Source: Oceanispirochaeta sp.
Lineage (GTDB): Bacteria; Spirochaetota; Spirochaetia; DSM-2461
Direction of reading: 5' to 3'
Assembly: GCA_963556075.3 (NCBI GenBank)
Contig: CAUVYB020000002.1
Coordinates: 3,374,767-3,398,766 of the forward strand
Length of the DNA: 24,000 nt
A model generated the notes under the pieces. The model saw only the letters and a program-made list of their open reading frames with translations. It was not told the DNA's origin and did no database searches. Positions 308 to 17,784 of the stretch are shown piece by piece. A program made the translations under genes and the position numbers. Position 1 is the first letter of the stretch; each line of letters opens with the position of its first letter.

Positions 308-400
308 TGATAAAGGCCTCCCTTGTGGCTCGTTTTTATCAGTTTATACTATTTGATCATAAAAGGGGAATCTTTAGTTATTTCCTTTGCCTGCCACTTA

Positions 401-429
401 TTGACTCAATTTCACGAACAATATATTAT
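401..429 (+). promoter_or_regulatory. Sigma70-type promoter for rpsD: TTGACT (401-406), 17-nt spacer, TATTAT (424-429)
   Basis: The hexamers and the 17-nt spacer were counted directly in the sequence. The promoter lies about 50 nt upstream of the rpsD ATG, and an AGGAGA RBS sits at 465-470. Confidence 0.6.
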
Positions 430-480
430 AGCTGAGCGCTTCGTAGAAGTGCCGAATACATATCAGGAGATATAAAAGTA

Positions 481-1098: not shown

Positions 1099-1117
1099 TT
1101 CTGGAACTTTCCTGAAA

Positions 1118-1142
1118 AACCCGGTGAAAGCCGGGTTTTTTT
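1118..1142 (+). terminator. Rho-independent terminator of rpsD
   Basis: Perfect 7-bp stem AACCCGG (1118-1124) / CCGGGTT (1131-1137) with a 6-nt loop (TGAAAG). It runs into a T-tract through 1142, 20 nt after the rpsD stop. Confidence 0.85.
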
Positions 1143-1332
1143 ATTTCCCGCCCCCTCTAATAAAAGAAAACGGATGATATTTCAATAAAGCTCGGTGAAT
1201 CTGTCTCTTCCCATAATATATTCACTTTAGAAGGCTCGCTGACGATAAGATGACGCTGTTGTCTCTTTCGATTAAAAAAAACATATATTATTTTTAAAAA
1301 TGTGTAATAATGGTCTTTGTGTTTATATTTGA

Positions 1333-4300
1333 GTGGGGGGACGCTCTGGTTTGATAAAAAAACTGTTTTTTATTATTTTGTGGCAGACAGTGCTTGTCCT
1401 CTCCCTGTTCTCTCTCCAGACAGCGTCCGAGGGAACTATGCACTTTCTCTATTTTCAGTTTCGGGAAAATTTTACAGGAAGCAGAACCGCCGCCTATGCC
1501 GAAGCCGCTGCCGATGACCTGAAGCTAAGTATCGAGCTGATCAAACCCGGAGATGATCCTCAGGATATGATGCGCCGAATCTCCGCCCGGGGAGTCTCCG
1601 GTATTATCCTCGATCAGATGGATGACAACACAGAAGCTCTGCTGCAAATGGCAGACAGGTATGAGACGCCCGTTTTCTGTATAAACCCCAAAAGTAAAGA
1701 GTTCCCCTTCCTGCCCGGGCAGCGATACCGGAACTGGATAGGAGAAATCAGACCCGCCAAAGACTTTCAAATGGAAGAGGGCGGCCTGGACAGCCGCCTC
1801 CTTCTAGGGGCCAAAGCCGTAATATACCTTTTTGATTTTCTCAAGGGATATGATTCAACGGGAAACGGGATTCTCATTGAGTCTCCGGATGATTATAAAA
1901 GCGGATTTTCTGAGTCTTTTCTTCTTTTGTCTCCCGAGTTGATCGATTTTTCACGTTCTTCCCTGTTTTTCAGAAATACCATATACAGGAACGAGAACTC
2001 CCTTTCGGACAGGCGGGGAGATTTTCACGAAAGAACGACGGAGGACGACTTCCAGAATTTTTTCTCAGATTTGAGGGTTCTCAGAGTGGGGCTGAGAGAG
2101 GAACGGGCTCCCTTTTCAAATATGGTTAACAATAAAGCCTCCGGTCTCTCCGTGGACTATATAAACCGTCTGGCGGATATGGCGGGGTACCAGATTCGCT
2201 ATACCGGCAGTAAGAGCAGAACGGAGCTGTTTGCTTGGCTCCAGGAAGGCCGGCTGGATATTCTACTGGACTGTTCTCCCATTATCGGGGGAGCGGAAGA
2301 GCTTCTTTTTACGGCTCCCTATTTTCAGACTCCATTGGTCCTTGTCACTGACCGTGACAGTTTTCCTGATTCCCTGGAGGATCTGAATGGAAAAATCGTT
2401 GCCCTTGAGTCGGATTCTCCTTTCAGGAATCTCTGGAGAAAAGAGCATCCGGAGATTGGCCAGTATCCTGTAGCAACGCTGGCTGACGGTCTCAAAGCGG
2501 TCAATTACGGGCGGGCCGATGCTCTTTTCGGTGAAAAAAAAATTATTGAAGCTCTTATGGATGAGGCAAGATACAAAGATCTAGTCATTCATCCTGAAGT
2601 CATTGTCAACGACGCCTTTCATATGGCTGTCCGGGCCGATCATCCGGATCTGGCGGTGCTGCTCAAGGTTATGATGGAGAAAGACCTTCTCCTCACCGGG
2701 GATGAAAATAACGAAACAGCGACAGCTCTACAACATCTCAGCAGAGAGAATCATGGTCCTGATCTTGTTTCCAATCCCCTCTATATCTGGGGCGCTTTTC
2801 TGTTTATAGCTCTGGTTTATCTGACTATGATTGTGATACAGAGAATGCATCTGAGACAATTGGAACAGGGAACATTTTACGATCACAGGAAACTGCTCCT
2901 GGGGGGGCTGAGCGTTCTTGTCTGTTCACTCATCATCATTCTTCTGTTTATCTCTGTCGGACTGTCGAGCATGAAGCGTTCCAAGATAGAGGAGACGATG
3001 GATTCTCTGGAGCTGGCATCCCGTTCCACCGCCATTATTCTGAACCAGTATCTCAAACAGAACCTCAATATTGCGATTGAAGAGGCCAATAATGAGGAGT
3101 TTGTTGAAAAAGCCGCAGAACTACTGAAAGCGTATCATGCCGGGGAAGCTGTTCCGGGCGGCGGAAAACTGGAAGACCTGAGAGGCTATCTGGATACACA
3201 TTCTCCCATAATCAGTTCGCGAGGGTATTTACTTATCTCTCCCGATCACAGGATTATCGCTTCACACGATGACAAATACCTGGGAATGCACAACTTTATC
3301 CTTTCATTCCGCCCGGAACTGATGGAAAAGGCCATGAGGGGAACTCCACTGTTTATTCCGCCGATCAGGGAGCCCGGATCATCGGAAACTGACAATCCTG
3401 AAAGCTTGTCTCTCTACTATACGGCCCCTCTTCGAGACAGAAAGGGCCAGGTCATTGCCGTCCTGGCTCTGAGAGAAAATTCTGAAAGGAATTTTACCTC
3501 CTTCTGTCAGATGGGACGAGTCGGGAAAACCGGAGAAACCTATGCCTTTGACAATCAGGCCAGAATGCTTTCCAGCAGTTTCTTTGAAGCCCATCTGAGA
3601 GATATCGGATTACTGAAGCAATATCAGAGTAGTGCCCTGAATATCATGATTCTTGATCCCGAAACCAAACTGGATGGAGAACGGTCCGCATCAATACGCC
3701 CTGATGAGATGCAGTACACCACGATGGTAAAGGAGGCCGTATTCTACGGGAACGGCCAGTCGGCGGAGGCCTACCGGGACTACAGGGGAGAGGACGTCCT
3801 GGGAGCCTGGCAGTGGATTGAATCCTTGAATATCGGAATCGCTTCGGAGCTACGCTTAGAGGATGCCCTCGCCTCATTCTATGCAGCAAGACGGTTCAGT
3901 CTGATGATGTTTCTGATCATCACCGTTCTTTCCACTAAATCGACGATTTTCGGTCTGAGATCGGGACGGCGTGTCAATGACATGCTTATAAAGGCCAATG
4001 AAGAGTTGGAAGCGAGGGTGGAACGGCGGACGAAAGATCTTTCGGAAGTAAACGAGAATCTGACGAAAACCATAAAGGAACTTGACAGGGCAAAGACAGC
4101 CGCGGAATCGGCGGATAGGGCCAAATCGGATTTTATTGCCAATATGAGCCATGAAATCCGGACGCCCATAAACGGCATCAGCGGTTTTGCCGTCCTCCTG
4201 GGACGGAGTTCCCTTTCCGAAGAACAGCGGGATTATCTTGATAAGATCTCAAATTCTACAGAAAGGCTGCAGACCATTGTCGATGATCTTCTCGACTTCT

Positions 4301-5916
4301 CCGAAACCGAGAACGGAACGGTCGAAATTGAATCTCACCCCTTTAAACCGATCGATATTTTCAGGAAGCTGCAGCTCCGTATGGAGGAGACGGCCCGCAA
4401 GAAGGGACTGGAACTTCGCTTTTCTGTCAATGATGTTATTCCGGAGACTCTGACAGGAGATGTCCGCAGGCTGAGGCAGATCCTGCATCATCTTATCGAC
4501 AACGCCCTCAAGTTCACCGAAACCGGATGCATCGATGTCCTGGCGGAGTGCGTGGACAGAACCGAAGAGAAGGTGACTTTGAAATTTCTGGTTCGTGATA
4601 CGGGAATCGGTCTTCGGGAAGAGCAGAAGTCCGAACTCTTCCAGGCTTTCACTCAGGCCGACAGCTCTTTTACCAGAAAATACGGTGGGATGGGACTGGG
4701 TTTGTCCCTCTGTCAGAGATATGTCGGTCTTATGGGCGGGGGTATTGCCGTGGAAAGCACTCCGGGAAAGGGATCCCTGTTCCACTTCACACTTGAATTT
4801 GATCTTCCGGGAGGGGAGGACGAAATATCGGAGCCGATGCACAAACTGTCTCTGGACAGGGTCCGAGGTGCAAGAATCCTGGTTGTGGAAGACAATGAGA
4901 TCAATCAGAGAGTTGTAAGGGAGCTTCTGGAGGATGAGGGCTTCTATGTGGATCTGGCAGAGAATGGAGCTATCGGCGTTCAAATGGTGAGCGAACGGGA
5001 CTCGTATGATGCGGTTCTGATGGATCTGCAGATGCCGGTGATGGGAGGCTATGACGCGACTCTGGAAATCAGGAAGAGTTTCGGTCCCGGGGATCTGCCT
5101 ATAATCGCCCTGACTGCCGATGCCCTGGTGGGAGCGCGTAAAAGGGTCCTCCAGTCGGGGATGCAGGATTATCTGCCCAAACCCATCGATGTGAATAAGC
5201 TTCGGGAAACCCTGAGCCGGTGGATCCCGCCCGGCGATCGGGAACTTCCGGAAGCATACAGAAGATCCCTGGAAAGGGGAGTGGAAAACAGGGAAACCGG
5301 GGAACAGGAGAGAAGGTTCCCTGCCATACCGGGACTGGACATTCAGGAGGGGCTTAAGCGCATCGGGGACAATCGCGAACTTTATCTGAATATGCTGAAG
5401 CAGTTCTGCACCGACTTCTCCGGAGCGGCCGACACTATCCGAACGGCTCTGACAGAGGGCCGTCGTGGGGATGGGATCCGCTGTGCCCATACCGTGAAGG
5501 GGCTGTCGGGCAGCCTGGGGGCCGGAGAGCTTTTCCTCTCGGCCCGGGAACTGGAAGCGACGTTAAAGGCCGGAGAGGCCGGGGATGACAAGCTTGACGC
5601 CCTGGGTGTGGGCATCACGCTTTTGATCGGCCATATTGAGGAATCGGGGATTCTGGTGGAAGAGAAGACGACCGGAGATCTTTTGTCCGTATCTCCTGAG
5701 AAGATAATGGAAGATCTGGCCAGGTCTATTGAATCTCTGAGGTCCAGAAAACCGAAGCCCGCTGCGGAAATCCTGAAATCCATGGAACGTTATGCTCTCA
5801 GGGAGGATGCCCGTGACTTTTTCATTGAAGCCGGAGAATCTTTGAAAAGGTACAAGATGAACGATGCCGCGGGTGCACTGGAGAATATCTTGAAAATATA
5901 CGAAAGAGAGGTGTGA
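1333..5916 (+). CDS. Membrane hybrid sensor histidine kinase (PBP-like domains, TM hairpin, Cache-like domain, TM, HisKA, HATPase_c, REC, HPt)
   Basis: 1527-aa ORF. Segments read from the translation:
- Signal/TM: [18 protein letters not shown].
- Degenerate LacI-type periplasmic-binding-like stretch: [12 protein letters not shown]...TPVFCIN.
- SBP_bac_3/PBPb-like domain: [12 protein letters not shown]...GRLDILLD...LVLVTDRD...IVALESDSP.
- Two TM helices: [20 protein letters not shown] and [24 protein letters not shown].
- Cache/PDC-like domain of about 290 aa: [16 protein letters not shown]...[13 protein letters not shown].
- TM: [12 protein letters not shown], then a coiled coil.
- HisKA: [10 protein letters not shown].
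- HATPase_c: DNALKFT, DTGIGL, GGMGLGL.
- REC: [10 protein letters not shown]...[11 protein letters not shown]...ALTADA...KPID.
- HPt: [12 protein letters not shown].
The start is uncertain. It is either GTG 1333 or TTG 1351; the latter has GGGGGGA about 9 nt upstream and gives a signal-like MIKKLFF... N-terminus. Confidence 0.93.
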
Positions 5917-5918
5917 AC

Positions 5919-6284
5919 ATGATTCTGCTTGTGGATGATACTTCATCGAATATTGACATTCTGATCGGTATTCTGGGGGACGATTACGAAATTGCTGTGG
6001 CCCTGAGCGGAGAGGACGCTATTGAGATCATGGATGAGGAGATCCCCGAACTGGTGTTTCTGGATGTTCTTATGCCGAGTATGAACGGCTATGAAGTTCT
6101 TGAATATATGAAGCAGAAGGAGTCTCTGAAACATGTTCCCGTCGTATTCCTTTCGGGAAATACGGAAGCTCAGGAGAAGGAAAAAGGTCTGGCTCTGGGA
6201 GCGTCCGCATACCTATGCAAACCCATTGATGCCGAAGCCGTACGGCTTCAGGCGGGACATTTTTGCTCCCGGGAGGAGATATAA
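5919..6284 (+). CDS. Single-domain response regulator receiver (CheY-like), RpfG-type REC without an output domain
   Basis: MILLVDDTSSNIDIL...LVFLDVLMPSMNGYEV...VVFLSGN...LCKPID contains every REC signature (DD, phospho-Asp, S/T, K). ATG 5919 has GAGAGG about 7 nt upstream. The track start, GTG 5913, overlaps the kinase stop and is the alternative. The protein ends abruptly after the start of helix alpha-5 (KPIDAEAVRLQAGHFCSREEI*). Confidence 0.85.
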   Translation: MILLVDDTSSNIDILIGILGDDYEIAVALSGEDAIEIMDEEIPELVFLDVLMPSMNGYEVLEYMKQKESLKHVPVVFLSGNTEAQEKEKGLALGASAYLCKPIDAEAVRLQAGHFCSREEI

Positions 6285-6490
6285 ACCGGCAGGAGATCAA
6301 AACATGGAATCCTCAGCTCCGGGGCATAATGCAGACTTCCGTCAGCGACAAGAAGATGGCCATCACTCTGATCAGGGAAGGCGCCGACGATTATATCGTC
6401 AAACCCCTGGACCGTCCCGTGGTTATGGCCAAGTTGAGAAAGCTGGTCAGAGACATGGATGGCGGAGGAAAAGAGCAGAATCCTGATTAA
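6263..6490 (+). pseudogene. Probable 3' remnant of a second receiver (REC) gene, covering only alpha3-beta4-alpha4-beta5-alpha5
   Basis: The frame-2 translation ...RQEIKTWNPQLRGIMQTSVSDKKMAITLIREGADDYIVKPLDRPVVMAKLRKLV... matches the C-terminal half of a REC domain (xIMxTS, GAxDYIxKP). The frame only opens at 6230, after a TGA, so there is no room for beta1-beta3 or the phospho-accepting Asp. The only starts are TTG 6263 or ATG 6323, and neither has a convincing RBS. Confidence 0.45.
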
Positions 6491-6507
6491 GAATCGGATA
6501 TTGATGT

Positions 6508-6536
6508 TTGAAAAAGTAACAATTGTTCTTTATAAT
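6508..6536 (+). promoter_or_regulatory. Near-consensus sigma70-type promoter of the stressosome-phosphorelay operon: TTGAAA (6508-6513), 17-nt spacer, TATAAT (6531-6536)
   Basis: The hexamers and spacer were counted directly. The predicted TSS is near 6543, which removes the TTG 6542 start given in the ORF track and favours ATG 6602 for the first gene. Confidence 0.6.
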
Positions 6537-6601
6537 TAGGTTTGTGTTTTGAATACGAAAAAAATGAAACATCGTTTTGTGGAAAAAGAGGATCTGTTTG
6601 T

Positions 6602-7468
6602 ATGGGTTGGGATCAGGATATGCTGGATTTGTCTCCTTTTGTACACTTTGTGAAGGATCAAAACGGTCATTATATTCAGGTAAACAGCACATACGAGAAA
6701 ACCCTGGGTCTGGACCGAAACGAGATCATCGGTAAGAAGGATGAACAGATATTCCCTCCTGAAATGTACAATCTCTGGAAGGAGAGGGAACGACGGATCT
6801 TCAGAGAGAATAAACATGATCAGTTTGAGATCACCCTGAATCATGAGGGTGTGGACAGGACATTCCTGGTCTATTACGGTCCCCATAATTTTACAGGGCG
6901 GGGCGATCAGAATTACATGGCCTGGATTCTTGAATTGACGGAAAGAAAGAACTCTGAAAATAACCTGATGAGAATTATTGATGCCCTGGGTTCCGGCTAC
7001 CTGTTGATCGATCCCGATACCAGAACCATTCGGGGGACCAACCGCAAGGCCCGTGAGCTGATCGGGTTTTCTGAAAATCAGATCATCGGAGAGGATTGTC
7101 AGCAGTTCATCTGCAAGATGAGAAACGGCGAATGCCCCATTGTCAATCACGGGATGAAGGTGGAGAACATGGACGGCCTGCTCAGAAAATGCAACGGCGC
7201 TACGATTCCCATTGTAAAGACGATCATTCCGGTCATGCAGGGAAGCAAGCGCTATCTGCTGGAGAGCTTTACTGATATCTCAGGTCAGAAAGAGAGAGAA
7301 GAGCACTTGAACAAGGCCATCGGGGAGTTGGAAAAGTTCACCAAGTTCGTCATTGATCGTGAAGAACGGATGATTGAACTTAAAGAAGAGATCAATCAAT
7401 TGTGTGAAGAACTGGGACGGAAAAAGAGATATAAAATCGATCAGATTGAGGAGCGTTCAGATGAATAA
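6602..7468 (+). CDS. Soluble tandem PAS-PAS sensor protein with a C-terminal coiled coil and no recognisable output domain
   Basis: This is the ORF-track 6542..7468 frame. ATG 6602 is preferred because AAGAGGA lies about 9 nt upstream and it is downstream of the predicted promoter.
- PAS1: FVHFVKDQNGHYIQVNSTYEKTLGLDRNEIIGKKDEQIF...
- PAS2: GYLLIDPDTRTIRGTNRKARELIGFSENQIIGEDCQQFICKMRNGECP...IPIVKTIIPV...LLESFTDIS
- The tail then has a heptad-like pattern: LNKAIGELEKFTKFVIDREERMIELKEEINQLCEELG. Confidence 0.85.
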   Translation: MGWDQDMLDLSPFVHFVKDQNGHYIQVNSTYEKTLGLDRNEIIGKKDEQIFPPEMYNLWKERERRIFRENKHDQFEITLNHEGVDRTFLVYYGPHNFTGRGDQNYMAWILELTERKNSENNLMRIIDALGSGYLLIDPDTRTIRGTNRKARELIGFSENQIIGEDCQQFICKMRNGECPIVNHGMKVENMDGLLRKCNGATIPIVKTIIPVMQGSKRYLLESFTDISGQKEREEHLNKAIGELEKFTKFVIDREERMIELKEEINQLCEELGRKKRYKIDQIEERSDE

Positions 7469-8234
7469 TGAGATGTCCACCAAGATTTTAGAGCAGCTGC
7501 CTACTCCGGTCATAGCTGTGAATAAGAATATGGATCTTATCTTTGTCAACGATGCAGGCTGTGATTTTATCGGCCGGTCCTGGAAAGAGATCAAAGGCTG
7601 TAAATGCTATGACGTTTTTAATTCAGAGCACTGCAACACGGAGCACTGCAGGATGAAGCATGTCATGGCGGGGGGAGAGCCCGTAACCATCCGGAATTCT
7701 ATGGTCATCAACGGCAGGACCATCCCCATCGAGTATACCGCCGACAAACTAGAGGATGAGAAAGGGAATGTTCAGGGCGGACTGGAGTACATTATCGATA
7801 TCTCCGAAACGGTGAGCAAAGAACAGAAACTCAGGGAGCAGAGCCGGACAATCATGGAAATCTCTACACCGGTTATCAAACTCTGGGACAGGATTCTCAT
7901 CCTTCCCATTGTGGGAATCGTCGACTCCTTCAGGGCTCAGCAGATGATGGATATGATGCTCAACAAGCTTAAGGAAACGGCATCGAAAATCATCATTCTT
8001 GATATTCAGGGCGTTGCCGCCGTAGATACGGCTGTGGCAAACCATCTGATCAAGATTGCCAAGGCTACACGCCTTATGGGCTGCAGCTGTATTATCTCCG
8101 GGATATCTCCAGCGGTGGCCCAGACTCTGGTGCAGCTGGGAATCGACCTGGGCTCCATCAAATCCAATTCGACTTTGCAGGAGGCTCTGGCTTCCAGTTT
8201 TGAAATGCTGAATCTGAAGGTGACTCAGGGTTGA
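7461..8234 (+). CDS. rsbR: RsbR-like stressosome sensor protein: N-terminal Cys/His-rich PAS plus C-terminal STAS
   Basis: ATG 7461 has GAGGAG upstream and overlaps the upstream stop by 8 nt. The C-terminal region STPVIKLWDRILILPIVGIVDSFRAQQMMDMMLNKL...IIILDIQGVAAVDTAVANHLIKIAKATRLMGCSCIISGISPAVAQTLVQLGIDL is the classical RsbR STAS pattern. It retains Thr at both positions equivalent to the B. subtilis RsbRA phosphosites (the VDT and AQT contexts). The N-terminal approximately 150 aa are PAS-like. Confidence 0.9.
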   Translation: MNNEMSTKILEQLPTPVIAVNKNMDLIFVNDAGCDFIGRSWKEIKGCKCYDVFNSEHCNTEHCRMKHVMAGGEPVTIRNSMVINGRTIPIEYTADKLEDEKGNVQGGLEYIIDISETVSKEQKLREQSRTIMEISTPVIKLWDRILILPIVGIVDSFRAQQMMDMMLNKLKETASKIIILDIQGVAAVDTAVANHLIKIAKATRLMGCSCIISGISPAVAQTLVQLGIDLGSIKSNSTLQEALASSFEMLNLKVTQG

Positions 8235-8237
8235 GCT

Positions 8238-8630
8238 ATGTTCACGAATGAAGAACGGTTTTCGCAGCTTTATGAACTTGAGGGATGTCTGATAGTCCCT
8301 TTTCACGAGGATATGAATGCGGGGAATATCCCTCCTTTGAGGGACAGCGTCCTGAATATGATGGCAAAGACAGGATCTTTTCGTGTGATACTGGATATGA
8401 CTTCCGTTGCCGTGATCAACAGCAGAACATTCCAGATGATTCTTGAAATGGCGGATATGGTCAGGATGATGGGAGGAGAGGCGGTCTTTACGGGCATACA
8501 GCCGGGGGTCGCCTCGGTTCTGGTAGATCTTGCGGTGAATACGGAAAGGCTGAAGACGGCTTCTTCCATAAATGAGGGGATCTCTCAGTTTCGTGAATCC
8601 TCCCGGATTTTCGGACTGAAGGATGCCTAG
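8238..8630 (+). CDS. rsbS: RsbS-like single STAS-domain stressosome scaffold protein
   Basis: 130 aa: ...CLIVPFHEDMNAGNIPPLRDSVLNMMAKTGSFRVILDMTSVAVINSRTFQMILEMADMVRMMGGEAVFTGIQPGVASVLVDL. This is a STAS fold pattern with a Ser (INS) at the position of the RsbS phosphoserine. The gene starts 3 nt after the rsbR-like stop. Confidence 0.88.
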   Translation: MFTNEERFSQLYELEGCLIVPFHEDMNAGNIPPLRDSVLNMMAKTGSFRVILDMTSVAVINSRTFQMILEMADMVRMMGGEAVFTGIQPGVASVLVDLAVNTERLKTASSINEGISQFRESSRIFGLKDA

Positions 8631-8639
8631 GAGCCGGAA

Positions 8640-9035
8640 ATGATTTGCTATGAAGTGGAAGACTCGGCGGACAGGGCCCATGTTCTTCTGTCTGTCAAAG
8701 AATTCTGCGTTCAGGCGGGATTCAACGAGATTCAGAGCGTCCTTGTCACCACCGCCGTTTCCGAGCTTATTACCAATATGATCAAGTATGCCGGCAGGGG
8801 CCGCATCGGCATGGATCAGGTCAGTAACGGGACAAACCGGGGCGTTCGTATTCTGGCGGAAGATGACGGGCCGGGAATATCGGATATCGAGATGGCGTTG
8901 AGGGAGAGTTACTCCTCGGGGGAGAGCCTCGGTCTGGGGCTTCCCAGTGTGAAAAGGATCATGGACAGCTTCGAGATCACATCGGCTCCGGGGAAGGGAA
9001 CCACGGTTCTGACTGTGAAATGGAGAGAACTGTAA
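8640..9035 (+). CDS. rsbT: RsbT-like GHKL serine protein kinase (anti-sigma-kinase family, HATPase_c_2 type)
   Basis: 131 aa with an N-box (AVSELITNMIKYA), a G1 motif (AEDDGPGI) and a G2 motif (GLGLPSVKRI). It has the size and position (after R and S) typical of RsbT. An AGGAG RBS lies 6 nt upstream of ATG 8640. Confidence 0.88.
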   Translation: MICYEVEDSADRAHVLLSVKEFCVQAGFNEIQSVLVTTAVSELITNMIKYAGRGRIGMDQVSNGTNRGVRILAEDDGPGISDIEMALRESYSSGESLGLGLPSVKRIMDSFEITSAPGKGTTVLTVKWREL

Positions 9036-9628
9036 TGTATGAATACGATACTGCCATGATCAGGGATGCACTGACCGGGAACAGCGACGAGTGCGGAGAC
9101 GACGGGATCATTATTGAAGAGGAGAGGACGCTCTTTGTGGCTCTTATGGACGCCCTGGGTCATGGAAGGGAGGCGCATAAAGTGGTCTCTCAGGCCGGTG
9201 ACTATATCAGGCAACACTTTCGGGAGGAGTTGACCGTCATACTCTCCGGACTGAACGATCATATGCAGGGAACCCGCGGCCTGGTGGCCGGATTGTGCCG
9301 GATAAGCAGAGACGACGGAAGCATTCAGTTTTCGGGAATCGGAAACATTTCCACCAGAATCCACGGGAAAGAAAACTACGCTTTCCGTCCCCGGGAGGGA
9401 ATCGTCGGATACCTGATGCCTCATCCCCGGAGGCTGCAGTATGACCTGGCTCCCGGAGATATACTGATTCTGAGCTCCGACGGTATTAAAGAGCGTTTGC
9501 CGCTGATCGATAAACCGGACCTGCTTCAGGGATCATCCAAAGAAATCGCATACCGGCTGATCAGGGAGTTGAGAAACCGCGACGATGCATCCTGTCTTGT
9601 GGTGAGGTGCCGAAAATGCAGATTATAG
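9035..9628 (+). CDS. rsbX: RsbX-like PP2C/SpoIIE-family serine phosphatase (feedback phosphatase of the module)
   Basis: [32 protein letters not shown]...GTRGLVAGL...ILSSDGIKE...DDASCLVV shows PP2C-type metal-binding Asp motifs and is RsbX-sized. ATG 9035 shares one nt with the rsbT-like TAA (TAATG). An in-frame ATG at 9020 is the alternative start. Confidence 0.8.
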
Positions 9629-12600
9629 GATCATTTAAAAAAGAGGAAATGTCCACTCTGACCCATGCCCGGAAAAAGCTGCTTTACCTTTCCCGTGATC
9701 TCGGTTTCTCTCATATCGGTTCGGCGCGGATCGCTTCGGCCTTTTCAGACCTTGTTCTGACGGATGAGAAAGATCTTATCCTTTCTGATACCCGGATCCT
9801 TCTCGGCAGGAAAGAGAATGCAGACTGCCTGATCCTTACAATCAGTCCCTGTAATCCGGAAATGACAGCCGAAGTGGCGGCTAAGCTCTTTTCCGGGTAT
9901 GAAAAGAAATCCGGAACAGCGGCATCGTCCGCTCTTTCGGGCTGGTTTACCCTGCCGCACCGGGAAAAACAGATCCCTGCAGATCTGCTTGAACAGTGGC
10001 AGCAGAGTTTTGCCGAACCATCCCGGGAGTCTCTGCTTCTGCGGCTCCGTAAAAATAACAGAGACCTTGAAGAGCATGCGGATGACCTGAAAATCGCCAA
10101 AGACGAGGCGGTACGAAAATCCGATGAATTGAAGTCTCGTCTGGAGGACCTCTCCCATGCCCGGCGGGCCATGCTCAATATCATGGAGGATCTTGAAATC
10201 AGCAAAGCCGGTATGGCGGCTCTGATCGGAGCCTTTCCGGATCTTATCAATATCATTTCAGAAGAAGGGACGTTTAAAAAATCTTTTCTGGGTCAGAACC
10301 GCAAGGAGCCTCACAGCTTTTTCAGAAACTTTAAAAACGGCACCGACCTGGAGGGGATGAGCCTTCGGGCGGTCCTTCCGAAGAAAGTCGCAGAGAAGAT
10401 TCAGAGGGGGATCGATAGATGCCTGAAACTGAACAATGTCGTTTCCGTAGAGTACTCCCTGCCGCTGAACGGTAGAAAACACTGGTTCGACTCCCATTTT
10501 TCTCCCATGAAGGCTTCCGAGGGGAATCAGGATCAGCGTCTCGTGGTCGCGGTGACCAGGGATATTACGGCTATGAAAGCCATGACGGAAGAGCTGGCTG
10601 TCGCCAAGGAGGACGCCGAGGCGGCCACCCGGGCCAAAGGGGACTTCCTGGCCAATATGAGTCATGAAATAAGGACTCCCATGAATGCCATTATCGGCCT
10701 GAGCAGCCTTGTGTCCCGTACGGAGCTGGATCTCAAGCAGAAGGACTATATTGAAAAAATCGAACGGTCCGCCAAGAATCTTCTGGTCATCATCAACGAT
10801 ATTCTGGACTTCTCCAAGATCGAAGCGGGTAAGATGGACATCGAAGAGACCGACTTCCTGCTGAACGATGTGCTTGACAACCTCTCCAACCTGATCGGTG
10901 AGAAGGTGAGGGCCCGGGGACTGGAACTGATTTTCCGTCAGGATCTGGAGATTCCCACCAGTTTGAAAGGGGATCCCCTCCGCCTGGGTCAGATCCTGCT
11001 GAACCTCTGCAACAATGCGGTCAAATTTACAGAAGCAGGACAGATCGAGGTCAATATCAAGCTGGAAAAACAGACTGATGAGGAGGCGCTGATCCGATTT
11101 GAAGTCTCCGATACGGGTATTGGCTTGACAGAAGACCAGCAGAAGAGGCTATTCCAGTCCTTTTCTCAGGCCGATACATCAACGACCCGCAAGTACGGCG
11201 GGACCGGCCTGGGTCTTGCCATCAGCAAAAAACTGTCCGAGCTTATGGGTGGGGGAATCGGCGTTGTCAGTGAGTATGGAAAAGGCAGTACCTTTTTCTT
11301 TACCGTTAAACTCAAGATCGGATGCGCCAGGGTCAACCGGATGGCTCCGGAGGATCTGAAGGGCGTCAGGGTTCTGGTTGTGGATGACAATGAATCGGCA
11401 AGAGATGTGCTGAACTCCTATCTGGAGGATTTCTCTTTTCTCTCCAAGGGTGTCGCAAGCGGAGAGCTGGCCCTGAGGGAATTGAACCAGGTCAAGGCTT
11501 CAGAGAACTTTGAGTACGATCTTGTGCTGATGGATTACCAGATGCCCGGTATGAACGGTTTTGAAGCCGTACAGAGAATCCGAAGGGATCTGGAGAATGT
11601 TAAACAGCCTAAAATCATTATGGTAACCGGCTTCGGCCGGGAAGAAATTATGCATAAGGCCGAGGACGGTCTGCTGGACGGTTTCCTGATTAAGCCGGTC
11701 AGTCCGTCCATGCTTTTTGACTGCATAATGCAGGTTTTCGGCAAGACGACGGTCTCCGCCATAAAAAAGAGACGGAATGAAAAGTACAAACCCGAGGGAT
11801 TTGAAAATATTCGGGGGGCCCGTATCCTTCTGGCAGAGGACAACGAAATCAATCAGCAGGTAGCAAAAGAAACTCTGGAACAGGAAGGCTTTTATATTGA
11901 TGTGGTCAATAACGGCAGAGAGGCGGCGGAAGCGGTCGGTCCGGAGTACGACTGCATCCTTATGGATCTGCAGATGCCGGTCATGGATGGTTATGAAGCG
12001 ACCGGAGCGATCCGTTCCCGGAAAGAGTATGAGGGACTGCCGGTTATCGCCATGACAGCCGATGCCATGGTGGGTGTGAAGGAAAGAGTGCTGAAGGCCG
12101 GAATGAACGACTATGTGACAAAACCCTTCAACCCCGAAGAGCTTTGGGAGACTCTGGTCCGCTGGATCAAACCGGGACAGCGGACTCTGCCTGACTCTTT
12201 TACACGGACCGGGGATGATAAAGCCGGGGCTCAAAAAGAGTTCGTCATCCCCGAGATCGAGAGGATCGATGTCAGCGACGGTCTGCGGAGACTCGGAGGA
12301 AACAGAGCCCTCTATCTGAATCTGCTGAGGAAGTTCTGCGAAGAATTTGAGCAGTCTGCTGAGGATATAAAAAGCAGCCTGGAGAGGAATCAGCGGGAAA
12401 GGGCCGAACGGGTGGCCCATACGGTGAAAGGCGCAGCGGGCAACCTGGGGGCCCGGGAACTACAGAATGCGGCAGCCAGACTGAACGCTATAATCAAAGA
12501 GAAACAGATCGATCGCTATGATGAGCTACTGGACGATTTCAACAGGGAGCTCACATTTCTCCTCAAGGCTATAGAGAACGCGGGCATCCGGGAAAGGGGA

Positions 12601-12873
12601 TCGGAAAAGGAGAGCCCTCAGAAGGAGCTCAGTGATTGTCAGTGGATTTCCCGTCTGAGAGAAATGACGCCGCTGGTAAAAAAACGACAGCCCAGGAAGG
12701 TTCTGGAGATTCTGAAAGAGTTGCAGGACTGCCGGACTCCGGAAGGAACCGAAGAACTCTTCAGGAGGCTGCAGAATCAGTTGAAGTCCTATCATTTCAA
12801 GGATGCGTCCCTCTCTATCGAGGCTCTGATAGAGACACTGGATGCCGGTCCGAAAGGATTGAACCGTGAATGA
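9616..12873 (+). CDS. Soluble hybrid sensor histidine kinase: unassigned N-terminal domain, coiled coil, PAS-like domain, HisKA, HATPase_c, REC, REC, HPt
   Basis: ATG 9616 has GAGGTG 6 nt upstream and overlaps the rsbX-like stop by 13 nt. No TM segments are seen. Motifs read:
- HisKA: [16 protein letters not shown].
- HATPase_c: NNAVKFT, DTGIGL, GGTGLGL.
- REC1: [10 protein letters not shown]...[11 protein letters not shown]...IMVTG...IKPV.
- REC2: [10 protein letters not shown]...[11 protein letters not shown]...AMTADA...TKPF.
- HPt: [12 protein letters not shown]. Confidence 0.93.
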
Positions 12874-13483
12874 AGCGCTGGACAGATTAAGCTGTTTTGA
12901 TACGGAGGACGGCCTGAAGAGGCTCGGCGGTTCACGAGAGTTTATGGTTGAACTTCTATATCATTTCATCCTTGAGTTTTCAGCTGCGGCGGATGAGTAT
13001 GAACGCCTTATGGAAGAGGGAAAACGGGATCCCGCCATACGCCTCATCCATTCGGTCAAGGGAGCCGCGGGGAATCTGGGGGCTAAACAGCTGCAGGCGT
13101 CGGCGTCGGCTCTTGAGGAGGATCTGAAAAGGAAGGATCTGGCGGGGGCGGAGAGGCTCTTTGTCCTCTTTGCCGGAGATCTGAAAGAGGCCCTGGAGGA
13201 CATACGCCGTTCCGGCATAGAGGATCTTTGGGGAGGACGCGGAAAGAGTCCGGGAGATGAGGCTTTGCTTATGGGGCTTTTATCTCAATTCAAGGCCTAT
13301 GCCGAAGCTGGGCAGATGAAAAGCGCCCGGAAAATAGTCCGGGATCTTGAGCTCTACCACTGGCCCGATGAGGCCGGCAGGACGGTGGATGCCATCCGCT
13401 CCCTTATGAAATGCTATAAAATAAAGGATGCTGCTCAGGCAGCAGATCAGCTCCTGGAGGAGCTGGTCGGTGATGTTATATGA
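12866..13483 (+). CDS. Stand-alone histidine phosphotransfer (HPt) protein with a C-terminal helical extension
   Basis: 205 aa with the HPt signature [16 protein letters not shown] and the upstream [16 protein letters not shown] pattern. Both are also present in the HPt domains of the two hybrid kinases. The GTG start overlaps the kinase stop by 8 nt, and its stop overlaps the next ATG (ATGA). Confidence 0.85.
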
Positions 13484-14619
13484 AACAGAAGAACCAGTCC
13501 CTGATTGAACATGCCACCCTTCTGATTGTGGATGACACCCCTCAGAACATCGATATCCTGGTGGAGACACTGGCAGAAAAATACGAGCTCCTGGTGGCTA
13601 CCGACGGCCGGGAGGCGCTGGAATCTGTGGAGGAGCAGCAGCCGGATCTTGTTCTTCTGGATATTGAGATGCCGGAGATGAACGGCTTTGAGACCTGTCA
13701 GCGTCTCAAGGGCGATGAACGGACCAGGGATATTCCTGTCATTTTTCTGACGGCCAACTCGGAGATTGATCAAAAGACAAAGGGATTCCGTCTCGGGGCG
13801 GTGGACTATATCACCAAGCCTTTTGATATACAGGAAATTCAGGCTCGGGTTGAGACTCAGCTTTCCGTTAAGATGGCCCGGGACGTTCTTAAAAACCAGA
13901 AAAATCTACTGGAAAACATGGTGCGCAAGAGAACAAGAGAGGTGATTCAAACCCAGGAGATAACGATCCGTATGGCCGCCTCCCTGGCCGAAACCAGGGA
14001 CAATGAAACGGGGAACCATATTCTGAGGACCCAGCGTTACGTCCGGATTCTGGCCGAAGAGCTGAGCCGGCTGCCCCGGTTTGCCGGGGAGCTGACCCCC
14101 TCTAAGATCGATCTTCTTGTAAAGTCCGCCCCTCTGCACGACGTCGGCAAGATCGGCGTTCCCGATGCGGTCCTGCTGAAAACAGGAAAGCTGACCGACC
14201 GGGAGTTCGATGAGATGAAAAAACATACCCTCTACGGGAGGGAGGCCCTGGCAAAGGCCGAGGAGAGAGAGGGCCGGGATCAGCCCGGCAAATCCTTTCT
14301 CCGCTTCGCCCGTGAAATCGCCTACGGACATCATGAGAAGTGGAATGGAAGGGGGTATCCTGCAGGCCTTGAGGGCGAGGCCATTCCCCTGTCCTGCCGC
14401 ATCATGGCCATCGCCGACGTCTATGACGCTCTTATCTCTCCACGGGTTTACAAAAAGGCCTTCTCTCATGCCAGGGCCTGTTCCATTATCGAAGAGGAGA
14501 AGGGGAGCCATTTCGATCCCGCGGTGGCCCGCTGTTTTCTGGAGAATATGGGGCGTTTCCGTGACGTCGCCCTGGGATTCATCAATAATAGCGAGGAGAA
14601 AGCCGTATTTCTCGGCTGA
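13480..14619 (+). CDS. Response regulator with HD-GYP domain (RpfG-family c-di-GMP phosphodiesterase)
   Basis: REC: LLIVDDTPQNIDIL...LVLLDIEMPEMNGFE...VIFLTAN...ITKPFD. HD-GYP: LHDVGKIGVPD ... YGHHEKWNGRGYPAGL ... IADVYDALISPRVYK. Confidence 0.93.
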   Translation: MKQKNQSLIEHATLLIVDDTPQNIDILVETLAEKYELLVATDGREALESVEEQQPDLVLLDIEMPEMNGFETCQRLKGDERTRDIPVIFLTANSEIDQKTKGFRLGAVDYITKPFDIQEIQARVETQLSVKMARDVLKNQKNLLENMVRKRTREVIQTQEITIRMAASLAETRDNETGNHILRTQRYVRILAEELSRLPRFAGELTPSKIDLLVKSAPLHDVGKIGVPDAVLLKTGKLTDREFDEMKKHTLYGREALAKAEEREGRDQPGKSFLRFAREIAYGHHEKWNGRGYPAGLEGEAIPLSCRIMAIADVYDALISPRVYKKAFSHARACSIIEEEKGSHFDPAVARCFLENMGRFRDVALGFINNSEEKAVFLG

Positions 14620-14634
14620 CTCCCGGATCTACTC

Positions 14635-17600
14635 CTACTCGGTGATCAGAGTGATTCCCGTTTCGGGCAGAGGCTCTTTCTTCTGAAAATCCCTGTCCCT
14701 GCCTTCTGACTGCTCCAGCAGCTGTGCGTCAGTCCCGGAGCTCATCAGGGAGAGTACCACCGGCAGAACCGCCAGGGTCAGGAAAGTGCCGAAGATCAGC
14801 CCCCAGGCGATAGAGATGCCGATAGGTACCAGCATCTGGCCGCCCACGCTTTTCTGAAAGATCAGGGGCGTCAGACCGATGGAGGTGGTCAGGGTGGTCA
14901 TGATGATGGGGCGGAATCTCTGCACGGCGGCTTCCCGGATTGCCAGGGGCCGGGGAATACCGGCCCTGAGCTTCTTGTTGAAGCAGTCTATCAGCACCAC
15001 CGAATCGTTGACGATGATTCCCCCCAGGGCCACGGAGCCCAGGAAGGAGATAAAGGAAACCGGCTTTCCCATAATCATATGACCGTAGACGGCACCCAGA
15101 AAGCCCAGAGGAATAAGGCTCAGCACAAGAAGAGCCTGGCCCCAGGACTTCATCTGGAAGAGCAGGAGAGTGAACATCAACAGCAGGGCCAGGGCCATGC
15201 TGAAGAGCATGGAGCGGATCATCCTGTTCACCTGTTCCGCCTGCCCCCCCTGGCTCAGGCTGACCCCTTCGGTCCGGTTGAGTATTTCCGGGAGGATACG
15301 GCTGTTGATCTCGTTCATCACCACGTTGAGTTCCGCCTCTTCGCTGTCGATGCCCGCCATAACCCGGAGGGAGCGGTAGCCGTTCTCCCGCCGGATGCGC
15401 TGACGGCTCCTCTGAAGCCTGTAGTCGGCGATCTCCCTGAAAGGGATAAGGGCGCCCGAAGGGGTCTTTATCAATAGCTCCTCCACCCGGCTCAGAGAGT
15501 CCCGTTCGGCAAGAGGATAGCGGACAAGGACGGGAAGCTCGTTGCGGCCCTCCTGAATGCTCATGATTTCACTGCCGTAGAAGCCGCTGCGCAGCTGACC
15601 GCTCACGCCTGCCGTGGTCAGTCCTAGGGCTCTTCCCCTGTCGTTCAGGCTTATAACGAACTCCTTTTCTCCCAGAGGTGTATCGTCCCTGATGTCCTTG
15701 ACTCCGTCTATGCGGGTCAGCTCGTCCTTGAAGAGTTCGGCCGCCCGGCGGAGCTCTCTGTCCGACCGTCCCAGGAAGCGGATGGATATGGGGCTGCCTC
15801 CGAAGAGGGAGTCGTTGCCGATAAACATGGACTCCAGCACGGGATCATCGGGTATCTGTCTGGCCAGGGCGAGGGAAAACTCGTTGACCGTGAATTCCCT
15901 CTCCTTGTTGTCGATCAGGATCAGATAGATCCAGAGTTTGGTGCCGTTTCCCCAGGAGAGGTAGTCCACCACCGCGTTATCATGCTTCCTGTCATTCTCG
16001 GTCCATGACCTTCCGAAGTCCAGCATTAACGCCTCTGTCCTCTCCCTGAACTCATCCACCGTGGCGGCGGTGGTTCCCGCTGGAAAGCTGAACTCGGCGT
16101 AGACATAGGGCGATTCGATCTCCGGAAAAAAGGCCGCCTTGATATGCTGTCCCGCAAAGGCTCCGGCGGAGATCATCACCGCCGCTCCCAGAAGAGAGAG
16201 GATAAAGGGCCTGTGTCCCAGAGCAAAGTCCAGGAAGGGGGCGTAGATCCGGTTTACCAGAGTGTCCTGGGCCGCCAGAAGACGGGCGCGCAGAGCGCCG
16301 GGCCGTCTTGCCTTTTCGCTCAGGGCGGCGGAGTGGGAGAGGTGCGCGGGCAGCAGAATCACTGCTTCCACCAGAGAGAAGAGGAGGCTGATGATGACCA
16401 CCAGTCCTATCTGGCTGACGTATTTTCCCATCTCTCCGTAGATAAAGAAGTAGGGGGCAAAGGCAACGATGGTGGTGGCGATGGAAACAAGCACGGGGGA
16501 GAGAACCTCCATGGTGCCGTCAACGGCAGCCTGTTTCCGGCTCTTGCCCAGACGCTTCCAGTGGTCGTAGATGCTCTCACCGATGACGATCCCGTCATCC
16601 ACCAGGATGCCGATGATCATGATCATGCCGAAGAGGGACATCTCGTTGATGGTGATACCCATAACCCATTCCAGAAAGACCAGCCCCATAAAGGAGATGG
16701 GAATGCCCATGGCCACCCAGAAGGAAATGCGGGTATTCAGGAAGAGTCCCAGAATCAGCATGACCAGCAGCAGCCCTCCCAGGCCGCTGGCGGTCAGGGT
16801 TCCCAGACGCTCGTGCAGCTCATCCACATCCCGTATATAGGTCTGAAAAGTCACCTGATCCTGATAACGTTCCTGGAACTCAGGCAGTTTCTCATCCACG
16901 ATCTTAGAGATGGCCACCACATCCTCATCGTAGCCGTACATGATCTGCAGGCCTACGGCATTCCGTCCGTTGGCACGGGTGTAGACGGCGTTTTCGGCCC
17001 GTCCCCGGCGTATGGTGCAGATGTCCTTCAGTCTGAGGATGCGTCCGGAGTCAAGCACCTTTACAGGGAGCTCTTCAAACTCGGGGATCTCCCTCTTCTT
17101 TTCATAGGTCCGGATGCGGATCTGTTCGCTGTCTGTAAGGATGGAACCGGCCGATAGGTCGAGGCTTCCCGTCCGGACGGCGTATTCAATATCTTCCAGG
17201 CTCAGGCCGTAGCGTGTGAGTCTCTCCGGGCGTGGTTCCAGAATGATCTTTTCCCGAGGGAATCCCCAGGTTTCGATCTGCGTCAGCTCACCCGTGCGGA
17301 GCAGCTCCTCCCTGAACTCTTCGGCCACATCCTCCAGGAGTTTCGGATCATCGGGGCCGTAGATAAAAAGGAGCATGACCCGATTCCATTCGGTCTCCTG
17401 ATAGATGACCGGTTTGTCCGCATCTTCGGGCAGGCCGGCGGAATCCACCTCCTGGCGTACCTTGTCCATGATGCGGCCTATGTCGCTGCGGGACGAGGTT
17501 TCCAGGCCGAAATTCGCCCATCCGTCGGAGGCGGTGGAGCTGACCTTTTCAACCCCCTCTATGCCTCTGAGCCTCTCCTCCAGGGGCAGAACCAGTGCTT

Positions 17601-17784
17601 CCTCCACCTCCAGGGCAGACGCACCGGGCCAGCTGAGCTCTATGGTGATCCAGTCGAACTCGATCATAGGCCAGATTCTCTTCTTGAGGTTCAGGAGCCC
17701 GAAGGTGCCTGCGGCGAAGATCAGAATCATCAGCCAGTTGGTCAGCAGGCGGTTGCCTACGAAGTAACTGATCAGCTTTTTCAT
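14635..17784 (-). CDS. RND efflux transporter permease (AcrB/AcrD/AcrF family)
   Basis: 1049 aa with the typical N-terminus (FVGNRLLTNWLMILIFAAGTFGL), a 12-TM two-fold repeat organisation and two large periplasmic loops. It has the conserved TM4 stretch (IGILVDDGIVIGESI) and its TM10 counterpart (GGIIVNDSVVLID). The start overlaps the adaptor stop (ATGA), and GGAGGAGGAG lies upstream. Confidence 0.95.
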   Translation of the reverse strand: MKKLISYFVGNRLLTNWLMILIFAAGTFGLLNLKKRIWPMIEFDWITIELSWPGASALEVEEALVLPLEERLRGIEGVEKVSSTASDGWANFGLETSSRSDIGRIMDKVRQEVDSAGLPEDADKPVIYQETEWNRVMLLFIYGPDDPKLLEDVAEEFREELLRTGELTQIETWGFPREKIILEPRPERLTRYGLSLEDIEYAVRTGSLDLSAGSILTDSEQIRIRTYEKKREIPEFEELPVKVLDSGRILRLKDICTIRRGRAENAVYTRANGRNAVGLQIMYGYDEDVVAISKIVDEKLPEFQERYQDQVTFQTYIRDVDELHERLGTLTASGLGGLLLVMLILGLFLNTRISFWVAMGIPISFMGLVFLEWVMGITINEMSLFGMIMIIGILVDDGIVIGESIYDHWKRLGKSRKQAAVDGTMEVLSPVLVSIATTIVAFAPYFFIYGEMGKYVSQIGLVVIISLLFSLVEAVILLPAHLSHSAALSEKARRPGALRARLLAAQDTLVNRIYAPFLDFALGHRPFILSLLGAAVMISAGAFAGQHIKAAFFPEIESPYVYAEFSFPAGTTAATVDEFRERTEALMLDFGRSWTENDRKHDNAVVDYLSWGNGTKLWIYLILIDNKEREFTVNEFSLALARQIPDDPVLESMFIGNDSLFGGSPISIRFLGRSDRELRRAAELFKDELTRIDGVKDIRDDTPLGEKEFVISLNDRGRALGLTTAGVSGQLRSGFYGSEIMSIQEGRNELPVLVRYPLAERDSLSRVEELLIKTPSGALIPFREIADYRLQRSRQRIRRENGYRSLRVMAGIDSEEAELNVVMNEINSRILPEILNRTEGVSLSQGGQAEQVNRMIRSMLFSMALALLLMFTLLLFQMKSWGQALLVLSLIPLGFLGAVYGHMIMGKPVSFISFLGSVALGGIIVNDSVVLIDCFNKKLRAGIPRPLAIREAAVQRFRPIIMTTLTTSIGLTPLIFQKSVGGQMLVPIGISIAWGLIFGTFLTLAVLPVVLSLMSSGTDAQLLEQSEGRDRDFQKKEPLPETGITLITE

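Follow-up and report, generated by a model that had tools for sequence, protein, structure and literature searches.

We analysed a stretch of 24,000 nucleotides from Oceanispirochaeta sp. (GCA_963556075.3, contig CAUVYB020000002.1, positions 3,374,767 to 3,398,766 of the forward strand), called the window hereafter and numbered from its first letter. It carries a stressosome-type RsbR/RsbS/RsbT/RsbX module followed directly by a hybrid histidine kinase, a free HPt protein and a REC-HD-GYP regulator, this last being a predicted phosphodiesterase of cyclic di-GMP (c-di-GMP). According to profile comparisons, the kinase starts with an RsbT-derived pseudokinase domain, named Ndom here, which lacks the ATP lid and the N-box Asn. 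Ndom went unmentioned in the initial annotation of this DNA and is the likeliest physical link between the kinase and the stressosome. As a complete explanation, we think it probable that the state of the stressosome is read via Ndom and relayed to the HD-GYP protein. The eight genes (G1 to G8), the candidate promoter before them and Ndom are:

6508-6536, plus strand: candidate sigma-70-like promoter, called from its consensus match alone (TTGAAA-17-TATAAT, 11/12 positions)
6602-7468, plus strand: G1, soluble PAS-PAS protein (Pfam PAS_4 and PAS_9) with a helical C-terminal tail (...REERMIELKEEIN...) free of Pfam matches
7461-8234, plus strand: G2, RsbR-type co-antagonist (Pfam PAS_4 and STAS with a linker helix between them; T190 and T222)
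8238-8630, plus strand: G3, RsbS-type single STAS antagonist (Pfam STAS only; Ser62)
8640-9035, plus strand: G4, RsbT-type GHKL Ser/Thr switch kinase (Pfam HATPase_c/HATPase_c_2)
9035-9628, plus strand: G5, RsbX-type PP2C feedback phosphatase (Pfam SpoIIE; 197 aa, a single domain with no N-terminal domain)
9616-12873, plus strand: G6, soluble hybrid histidine kinase (Ndom, coiled coil, then by Pfam PAS_4, HisKA, HATPase_c, REC, REC and Hpt, and a C-terminal extension)
9616-10110, plus strand: Ndom, the N-terminal ~160 aa of G6, a putative RsbT-derived pseudokinase domain followed by a long linker helix
12866-13483, plus strand: G7, free HPt protein (Pfam Hpt; H62 in HSVKG)
13480-14619, plus strand: G8, REC-HD-GYP response regulator (Pfam Response_reg and HD_5/HD, HD_5 at 1e-29), predicted c-di-GMP phosphodiesterase

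Residues 1-240 of the kinase have no match in Pfam or NCBIfam. Word-indexed homology searches with these residues or with the Ndom alignment gave no matches, a sequence search of Ndom against the PDB gave nothing meaningful, and only generic PAS matches were obtained by tblastn of the kinase N-terminus against plasmids. Relatives were found by an exhaustive phmmer search with residues 1-161 against 1.84 billion cluster representatives. They are only 9, the match being at the extreme N-terminus in all of them (9/9), and most are hybrid kinases of 917-1078 aa, accompanied by one PAS-PP2C fusion (P0128) and one PAS-PAS fusion (P0127). All 9 are encoded directly 3' of a PAS-STAS / STAS / RsbT / PP2C block. 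The Ndom profile also matches the kinase following rsbX in L010, L011, L013, L037, L062 and L080 (L numbers denote the loci compared), and likewise the Legionellaceae locus L023, where the sensor of RsbR is a protoglobin. About 20 Ndom loci were found in all, with Ndom directly after RsbX in every one.

The same profile matches dozens of genuine RsbT proteins, with E-values from 1e-8 to 1e-3 that rank below those of its own family, and gave no match at E<=10 with RsbW of the Bacillus loci. By hhalign, Ndom aligns to the RsbT alignment with 96% probability (E 3e-9, 106 columns), with a clean deletion in Ndom at the position of the RsbT G1/G2 ATP lid. The N-box Asn is replaced, position 49 being Thr (T49) in the window. 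Helices alpha1 and alpha2, on the other hand, show good conservation: R19, L29-G30-F31, R38, S44 and L46 keep the numbers they have in B. subtilis-type RsbT. Kinase activity is excluded for Ndom by the loss of the N-box Asn, the G1/G2 boxes and the ATP lid, and the domain would be a derived pseudokinase rather than a member enzyme.

The AlphaFold2 model of Ndom, built from a ten-sequence alignment, is of good confidence, with a predicted local distance difference test score (pLDDT) of 86.9 and a predicted template-modelling score (pTM) of 0.78. It opens with a strand, followed by a pair of helices and a pair of strands; one helix, two more strands and a short helix come next, and a long helix starts at residue 137. 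Its top Foldseek neighbours in the PDB are UsfX, RsbW and SpoIIAB, with probability of 0.9-0.99 and target-normalised TM of 0.44-0.52. These anti-sigma kinases (SpoIIAB/RsbW/UsfX; 1TH8, 6M37, 8JZT) are the closest solved folds and have the alpha1-alpha2 and sheet order in common with Ndom, which differs from them in being fused to a histidine kinase and in having a sequence nearer to RsbT than to RsbW. The RsbU_N domain was also considered for this N-terminus and was discarded, since neither an RsbU_N match in Pfam nor a phmmer match with Bacillus RsbU_N was found, and the model is alpha/beta with GHKL neighbours in Foldseek. The RsbU_N fold is helical. With its GHKL-like alpha/beta fold, the proposed adaptor of the window differs from that of Bacillus subtilis, RsbU_N.

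An intermediate form was found in L083 (Blastocatellia), in which both the PP2C protein and the kinase encoded after RsbT start with a Pfam HATPase_c_2 domain. The N-domain of this kinase keeps the ATP-lid insertion that is absent from Ndom, and its linker to HisKA aligns with the Ndom linker helix. In the same locus (767-3200), the RsbT-like N-domain is carried by the PP2C too, as an intact HATPase_c_2-PP2C of 360 aa. In L006 Ndom is found on a PAS-PP2C protein, in the position that RsbU_N holds in RsbU. This L006 gene (3715-5361) encodes a degenerate Ndom-PAS-PP2C of 548 aa, and genes for SiaC, DUF6272 and a guanylate cyclase come after it. The proposed role of Ndom has a parallel in RsbU_N, which with its linker acts on RsbU, on GGDEF cyclases and on certain kinases (PMC12143880).

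The identity of the upstream module, including its phosphosites, had been proposed from gene order and motifs, and it is borne out by the profile searches, which assign STAS, STAS, GHKL and PP2C domains within 7461-9628. T190 and T222 of RsbR are the equivalents of B. subtilis RsbRA T171 and T205; aligned to Bacillus-type RsbR, they fall on its AVDT and AQT motifs. In RsbS, S62 is the equivalent of B. subtilis S59; it aligns with the Ser of ...IDS in chain 6jhk_A, and the best PDB matches of this protein are RsbS proteins. RsbT has 428 homologues, many of them named RsbT by JGI, and its boxes are intact (N-box SELITN, DDGPG, GLGLP). RsbX matches B. subtilis-type RsbX (7e-12), not the PP2C of RsbU, and keeps the metal-binding Asp motifs GDDG, DALGHG, SDG and DDAS.

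The linker and STAS regions of RsbR are 54% identical (E 1.6e-46) to the 306-aa RsbR of a cryo-electron microscopy (cryo-EM) entry listed as 7o0i, while Bacillus and Listeria RsbR match at only about 1e-25 and 33% identity. The 7o0i particle has 48 chains of RsbR together with 12 of a 115-aa RsbS; judging from the matching composition, it would be the model cited in the V. vulnificus paper as 7O01. A large pseudo-icosahedral RsbR:RsbS particle sequestering RsbT is predicted from the 54% identity. It could be argued that no such particle exists here, and that the PAS-STAS and STAS proteins titrate an RsbW-like kinase as a simple soluble partner switch, as many STAS/GHKL pairs do, since the assembly is predicted from sequence. 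We find this hardly credible given the 54% identity to a protein forming a 48:12 particle and the conservation of the R-S-T-X order, both Thr sites of RsbR and the Ser of RsbS.

The N-terminus of the window RsbR matches PAS_4 and shows no globin or protoglobin domain in Pfam. After the conserved ...elkG... segment of this PAS, we found the motif C-x7-HC-x-T-x2-C (C49, H57, C58, T60, C63), present in all the PAS-type RsbR examined (20/20); Cys47 and H62/H67 are additional in the window and are not conserved among them. The invariant Cys3-His set suggests binding of a metal or an iron-sulphur (Fe-S) cluster, and consequently redox or metal sensing. The single-sequence AlphaFold2 model of RsbR has low confidence (pLDDT 42.7). 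A photoreceptor of the light-oxygen-voltage (LOV)/YtvA type was rejected, with 96 bits for NCBIfam YtvA_fam against a cut-off of 250 and absence of the flavin-Cys motif NCRFLQ. In its domain content, the window module is a sensor variant and not an orthologue of the O2-sensing globin type.

Downstream of Ndom, the kinase keeps H350 (SHEIRTP), NNAVKFT, DTGIG and GTGLGL, the receiver triads D640/T671/K693 and D784/T814/K836, and H935 of the HPt in HTVKG; its NCBIfam matches are BarA/TorS-like and below the cut-off. The free HPt protein has orthologues in L001, L088 and L019 and is 32-33% identical, over about 190 residues, to the C-termini of both hybrid kinases of the window, G6 and a membrane kinase encoded upstream of the cluster. 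All three HPt modules of the window (12560-12873, 13240-13483 and 5680-5916, plus strand) end in a common helical extension of ~80 residues, finishing in ...K.Y.(F/I/M)(K/N)DA...(L/I), which is present in homologous kinases and has no Pfam match. The HD-GYP regulator contains D61, ETGNH, HDVGK, HHEKWNGRGYP and DVYDA, and scores 158 bits, below the cut-off of 400 bits, with the NCBIfam NosR-family response-regulator c-di-GMP phosphodiesterase. With these intact motifs and the conserved synteny described below, the predicted His-Asp-His-Asp relay ending in HD-GYP is supported, as are the assignments of all eight genes, with the catalytic and phospho-acceptor residues all in place.

The eight co-oriented genes extend from 6602 to 14619 on the plus strand, and their junctions of -8, +3, +9, -1, -13, -8 and -4 nt, reproduced here from the chosen starts, are all overlaps or short gaps. 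The starts are ATG at 6602, 7461, 8238, 8640, 9035, 9616 and 13480 and GTG at 12866, each of the 8 preceded by a purine-rich, plausible Shine-Dalgarno sequence, and they result in protein lengths that agree with the orthologues called in L001. The near-consensus promoter reported at 6508-6536 is confirmed as a candidate only. It is the top of 11 sites in 10 kb (5500-15500), where shuffled sequence gives a mean of 6.7 promoter-like sites at >=9/12, and the equivalent intergenic region of L001 contains TTGCAT-17-TAGAAT. An Rfam scan of the whole window found no RNA family, and thus no riboswitch in the 5' leader, and a repeat search of the window found receiver-domain paralogy only. The absence of a sigma branch from the 24 kb also stood: Pfam scans of the other large open reading frames (ORFs) found no sigma factor, RsbU, RsbV or RsbW, and phmmer with B. 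subtilis-type queries from L061 gave no RsbU/V/W/SigB match in any window ORF of at least 70 aa. The gene chain is more than chance, because the same chain is kept in other genomes, and we consider that the eight genes are, from their arrangement, a real and conserved operon.

This conservation was investigated in the neighbourhoods of the best 80 RsbT-encoding loci from species-representative genomes, by phmmer with the window domains and Bacillus references. The full chain was found again in L001, L088, L010 and L013. The closest relative of RsbT (64% identity) is encoded in L001, from a Spirochaetales metagenome-assembled genome (MAG), where the chain is identical and is accompanied by the upstream SBP hybrid kinase and two receiver genes, eleven syntenic genes in total. 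In L088, a second Spirochaetales MAG, a dCache-PAS protein precedes R, S, T, X, the kinase, the free HPt and REC-HD-GYP. L010 (Desulfobacter) contains R-S-T-X, a HisKA-HATPase-REC-REC-HPt kinase and then REC-HD-GYP, and L013 (Desulfobacteraceae) has R-S-T-X and a REC-REC-HPt kinase followed by REC and HD-GYP ORFs. R-S-T-X with a HisKA-HATPase-REC-REC-HPt kinase is also present in L011 (Spirochaetales MAG) and L062 (Victivallales), and with a single-REC kinase in L037 (Clostridium MAG); in L080 (Gammaproteobacteria) the arrangement is kept as far as the contig reaches. The core of RSTX and Ndom-kinase is found in L004, L007, L011, L037, L062, L080, L089 and L091, and in L019 the HPt and REC-HD-GYP genes are upstream of R-S-T-X. 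The remaining loci of the survey have outputs that earlier literature describes, namely RsbU-V-W-SigB-X (Bacillaceae), RsbU_N-GGDEF (a Moorella-like firmicute), single receivers or GGDEF proteins.

In L004 (ERZ22147072), R-S-T-X and the Ndom-kinase (8804-14111) are found in a different genomic context, with G1, the free HPt and HD-GYP absent. The ribosomal protein S4 of this relative is at least 90% identical to that of the window, while RsbT is only 52% identical. It suggests paralogous or mobile copies of the core module within the lineage.

The initial annotation did not recognise this wiring as characterised, a view that has to be abandoned, since the same basic wiring is that of the published Vibrio vulnificus locus. 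In this species rsbR-S-T-X is followed by VvD1 and VvD2 (PMC9237108, PMC10014275, PMC10436020), a locus catalogued by Pane-Farre 2005, as cited in the V. vulnificus papers, and its stressosome was imaged by cryo-EM (same three papers). VvD1 is a PAS-containing sensor kinase whose knockout deletes nt 12-3185, which corresponds to a protein of about 1,060 aa, and VvD2 is part of a two-component system described as 'most likely involved in c-di-GMP hydrolysis' (PMC10014275, PMC10436020, PMC9237108). The six genes are co-transcribed, and the RSTX and D1 deletion mutants both lose motility and fleQ expression (PMC10014275, PMC10436020).

Both loci have RsbX directly after RsbT, no sigma B, RsbU, RsbV or RsbW, a PAS sensor kinase right after rsbX, a regulator for c-di-GMP hydrolysis downstream, overlapping genes and the same subtype of RsbR STAS. 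The kinase gene of the window shares 13 nt with rsbX, and REC-HD-GYP is encoded two genes after it. They differ in the RsbR sensor, a Cys3-His PAS in the window and a haem globin in Vibrio, and in the extra upstream PAS-PAS gene with a conserved tail, the separate HPt and the spirochaete host. Among the parts taken earlier as distinguishing, the PAS sensor, the extra first gene and the free HPt hold, while a kinase followed by a c-di-GMP-hydrolysing regulator is already known from Vibrio. The locus is therefore a variant of the Vibrio-type stressosome with a two-component, c-di-GMP output, and its basic wiring is not new.

Two other systems are more distant in their output. In the MtR/MtS/MtT/MtX-MtG system of Moorella thermoacetica (Quin 2012, as cited in PMC4976288 and PMC12143880), the output is described as an RsbU_N-GAF-GGDEF cyclase contacted directly by RsbT, whereas the window would have a four-step phosphorelay ending in an HD-GYP hydrolase, with an RsbT-like pseudokinase domain, and not RsbU_N, as adaptor. 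RsbR/S/T/X of B. subtilis are homologous with conserved phosphosites, and there too an N-terminal adaptor with a coiled-coil linker controls a dimeric effector (PMC12143880). RsbU, RsbV, RsbW and SigB of that system are absent from the window, where RsbX directly follows RsbT.

An alternative for the whole cluster is that its halves are independent, with RsbRSTX acting on an unlinked target and the kinase/HPt/HD-GYP relay following its own PAS or the upstream SBP/dCache kinase. The kinase indeed has a PAS domain of its own, another hybrid kinase, whose HPt is of the same type, is encoded upstream, and the DNA examined from this genome is a 24-kb window of 5 Mb. On the other hand, the adjacency and overlap of rsbX and the kinase (-13 nt in the window) are kept across five groups, Spirochaetota, Desulfobacterota, Clostridia, Victivallales and Gammaproteobacteria. 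Ndom is never away from RSTX in the 9 representatives (9/9), and the D1 and RSTX deletions of V. vulnificus share phenotypes (PMC10014275). We therefore regard two independent halves as very unlikely.

We propose that RsbR and RsbS would assemble through their STAS domains into a scaffold holding the switch kinase RsbT. RsbR would sense via its PAS, with a metal or an Fe-S cluster as the probable ligand of the Cys3-His motif, and would probably take input from its PAS-PAS partner G1 via the C-terminal tail of the latter. RsbT would phosphorylate S62 of RsbS and T190/T222 of RsbR, with RsbX resetting these proteins, and the signal would enter the hybrid kinase through Ndom and the coiled-coil linker behind it. 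The phosphate would then pass from H350 to D640 or D784, to H935 or H62 of the free HPt, and to D61 of the regulator, with a change in c-di-GMP hydrolysis. In this scheme we infer that the complex assembles, what the ligand is, how the kinase is coupled, in which direction and with which sign regulation works, and that the enzyme is active.

The signal could reach Ndom by two routes. Ndom could pair with released RsbT, as SpoIIAB and RsbW, which are homodimers, pair with themselves, or, being a descendant of RsbT, it could bind the STAS scaffold in competition with RsbT. We lean towards docking on the scaffold because Ndom keeps the alpha1-alpha2 partner face of RsbT, including R19, a residue of RsbT implicated in RsbT-RsbU binding (Hardwick 2007, as cited in PMC12143880). 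Docking would also fit the undetected interaction between RsbT and VvD1 (PMC9237108).

The reading of the stressosome state by Ndom is supported by the order of the genes, their domains and intact motifs, the recurrence of the chain in other genomes, the homology between Ndom and RsbT and the exclusive position after RsbX. Several points weigh against it. Kinases of the SpoIIAB/RsbW type bind their STAS partners partly via the ATP-lid surface, the half that Ndom is devoid of. In Foldseek, the neighbours of the Ndom fold have weak E-values (0.01-0.5, with TM about 0.45-0.5). The kinase could sense independently through its own PAS, and this HPt and regulator could also be served by the hybrid kinase encoded upstream, in which case the stressosome may be only one of several inputs. 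For this organism, the mechanism rests on sequence and models. Finally, Heinz et al. did not detect an interaction between RsbT and VvD1, and proposed phosphorylation (PMC9237108).

This last result would favour a transient catalytic coupling, in which released RsbT phosphorylates the kinase on Ser/Thr and Ndom is a dimerisation or regulatory domain that does not bind the stressosome; the window RsbT, which keeps all its kinase motifs, is in agreement with it. Such a coupling leaves unexplained why an RsbT-derived domain is confined to proteins encoded behind RsbX, where two unrelated types of effector, kinase and PP2C, carry it. Ndom also shows no evident phospho-acceptor loop conserved in the manner of STAS domains. 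We judge it rather unlikely.

Taking the reading through Ndom further, we tentatively suggest that Ndom is the missing adaptor of non-sigma-B stressosomes. It would plug an effector (a histidine kinase, or the PP2C in L006) into the RsbR/RsbS scaffold or pair with RsbT, so that the phosphorylation state of the stressosome sets the kinase activity via the coiled-coil linker. Together with the Cys3-His PAS-RsbR and the output-less tail sensors encoded always just upstream of rsbR, it would define a distinct subtype integrating membrane and cytoplasmic redox/metal signals, with a c-di-GMP output. To this wider proposal we give somewhat less than an even chance.

The tail sensors are known from 8 loci, in which the gene directly upstream of a PAS-type rsbR ends in a conserved tail of ~50 residues, ...LE(K/S)FN(R/K)LTINREERMIELKEEIN.L..ElG...KYKI. 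It does not correspond to a known Pfam domain, a possibility rejected as no Pfam match was found for the tail of G1. The tails are located at:

7290-7468 of the window (G1)
8718-8807 of L001
6477-6566 of L005
3919-4008 of L009
2176-2265 of L019
8561-8650 of L043
2655-2840 of L088
1844-1933 of L091

The N-termini of these proteins vary, being SBP_bac_3, dCache_2, PAS and GAF sensors, and Pfam revealed no enzymatic output domain in the family. The protein of L005 has 2,141 aa, with four SBP_bac_3 matches and PAS/GAF arrays, those of L088 and L091 have dCache_2 and PAS, and G1 is the minimal member. The second PAS of G1 carries a Cys triad, C166-x4-C171-x6-C178 followed by P (window 7095-7150, residues 166-183), which L001 and L005 share. 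The triad occupies the PAS region that holds the motif in RsbR, with a different spacing. The tail-bearing proteins look like dedicated stressosome inputs that would act through the tail.

Upstream of the cluster, the following features were found:

1333-5916, plus strand: membrane hybrid kinase (Pfam SBP_bac_3, dCache, HisKA, HATPase, REC and HPt), syntenic in L001
5913-6284, plus strand: single-domain receiver (Pfam Response_reg), 71% identical to its L001 orthologue
6260-6489, plus strand: remnant of a second receiver gene, of which the C-terminal ~70 residues are left (...IMQTSVSDKKMAITLIREGADDYIVKPLDRPVVMAKLRKLV...)

By tblastn with the intact 150-aa receiver of L001 (7330-7782), only residues 76-143 align to the remnant, with 57% identity. 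The deletion, which took the half with the phospho-Asp, abuts the end of the preceding receiver gene. The eight genes may not form a closed unit, as those at 1333-6284 are found in synteny with them in L001. The hybrid kinase encoded there is possibly a second input to the same relay, and the free HPt could be the point where the SBP/dCache kinase and the stressosome-controlled kinase converge, because both kinases end in an HPt with extension to which it is paralogous.

SBP_bac_3 sensors homologous to the periplasmic part of the upstream kinase adjoin PAS-type RSTX in L005, L006, L009 and L010 as well, fused to different partners (kinase, PP2C or a G1-type tail). The respective regions are:

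1333-6284 of the window
2361-7782 of L001
141-6566 of L005
5426-7981 of L006
975-2951 of L009
15008-19771 of L010

The recurrence of this pairing suggests that solute sensing in the periplasm is linked to the PAS-type stressosome subtype.

The GC content of the window is 53%, and its other genes encode ribosomal protein S4, the SBP/dCache hybrid kinase, a receiver, a resistance-nodulation-division (RND) efflux pair and trp products. The S4 protein falls into one cluster, at 90% identity or more, with those of Spirochaetales MAGs, so that the source is an uncultured spirochaete. The HD-GYP gene (end at 14619) and the convergent gene of an AcrB-type RND transporter (14635-17784, minus strand) have their ends 15 nt apart, and a simple scan for terminator-like hairpins between the two found none.

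In the literature searched, the coverage of which is incomplete, we did not find descriptions of the RsbT-derived kinase adaptor, the Cys3-His PAS of RsbR or the tail-bearing upstream family. The signal output of stressosomes devoid of sigma B is an acknowledged gap; in V. vulnificus, neither an RsbU_N domain on the downstream kinase nor an interaction of this kinase with RsbT was found (PMC9237108). An RsbT-derived domain found only after rsbX, and on two effector types, offers a concrete and cheaply testable hypothesis for the step from stressosome to kinase, while the Cys3-His PAS motif and the tail-bearing sensors give hints of the stimulus for this subtype and of the way in which signals from outside arrive at the scaffold. 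It is a widespread subtype, occurring in Spirochaetota, Desulfobacterota, Clostridia and Victivallales, and Ndom may provide the connection between stressosomes of this kind and their kinases.

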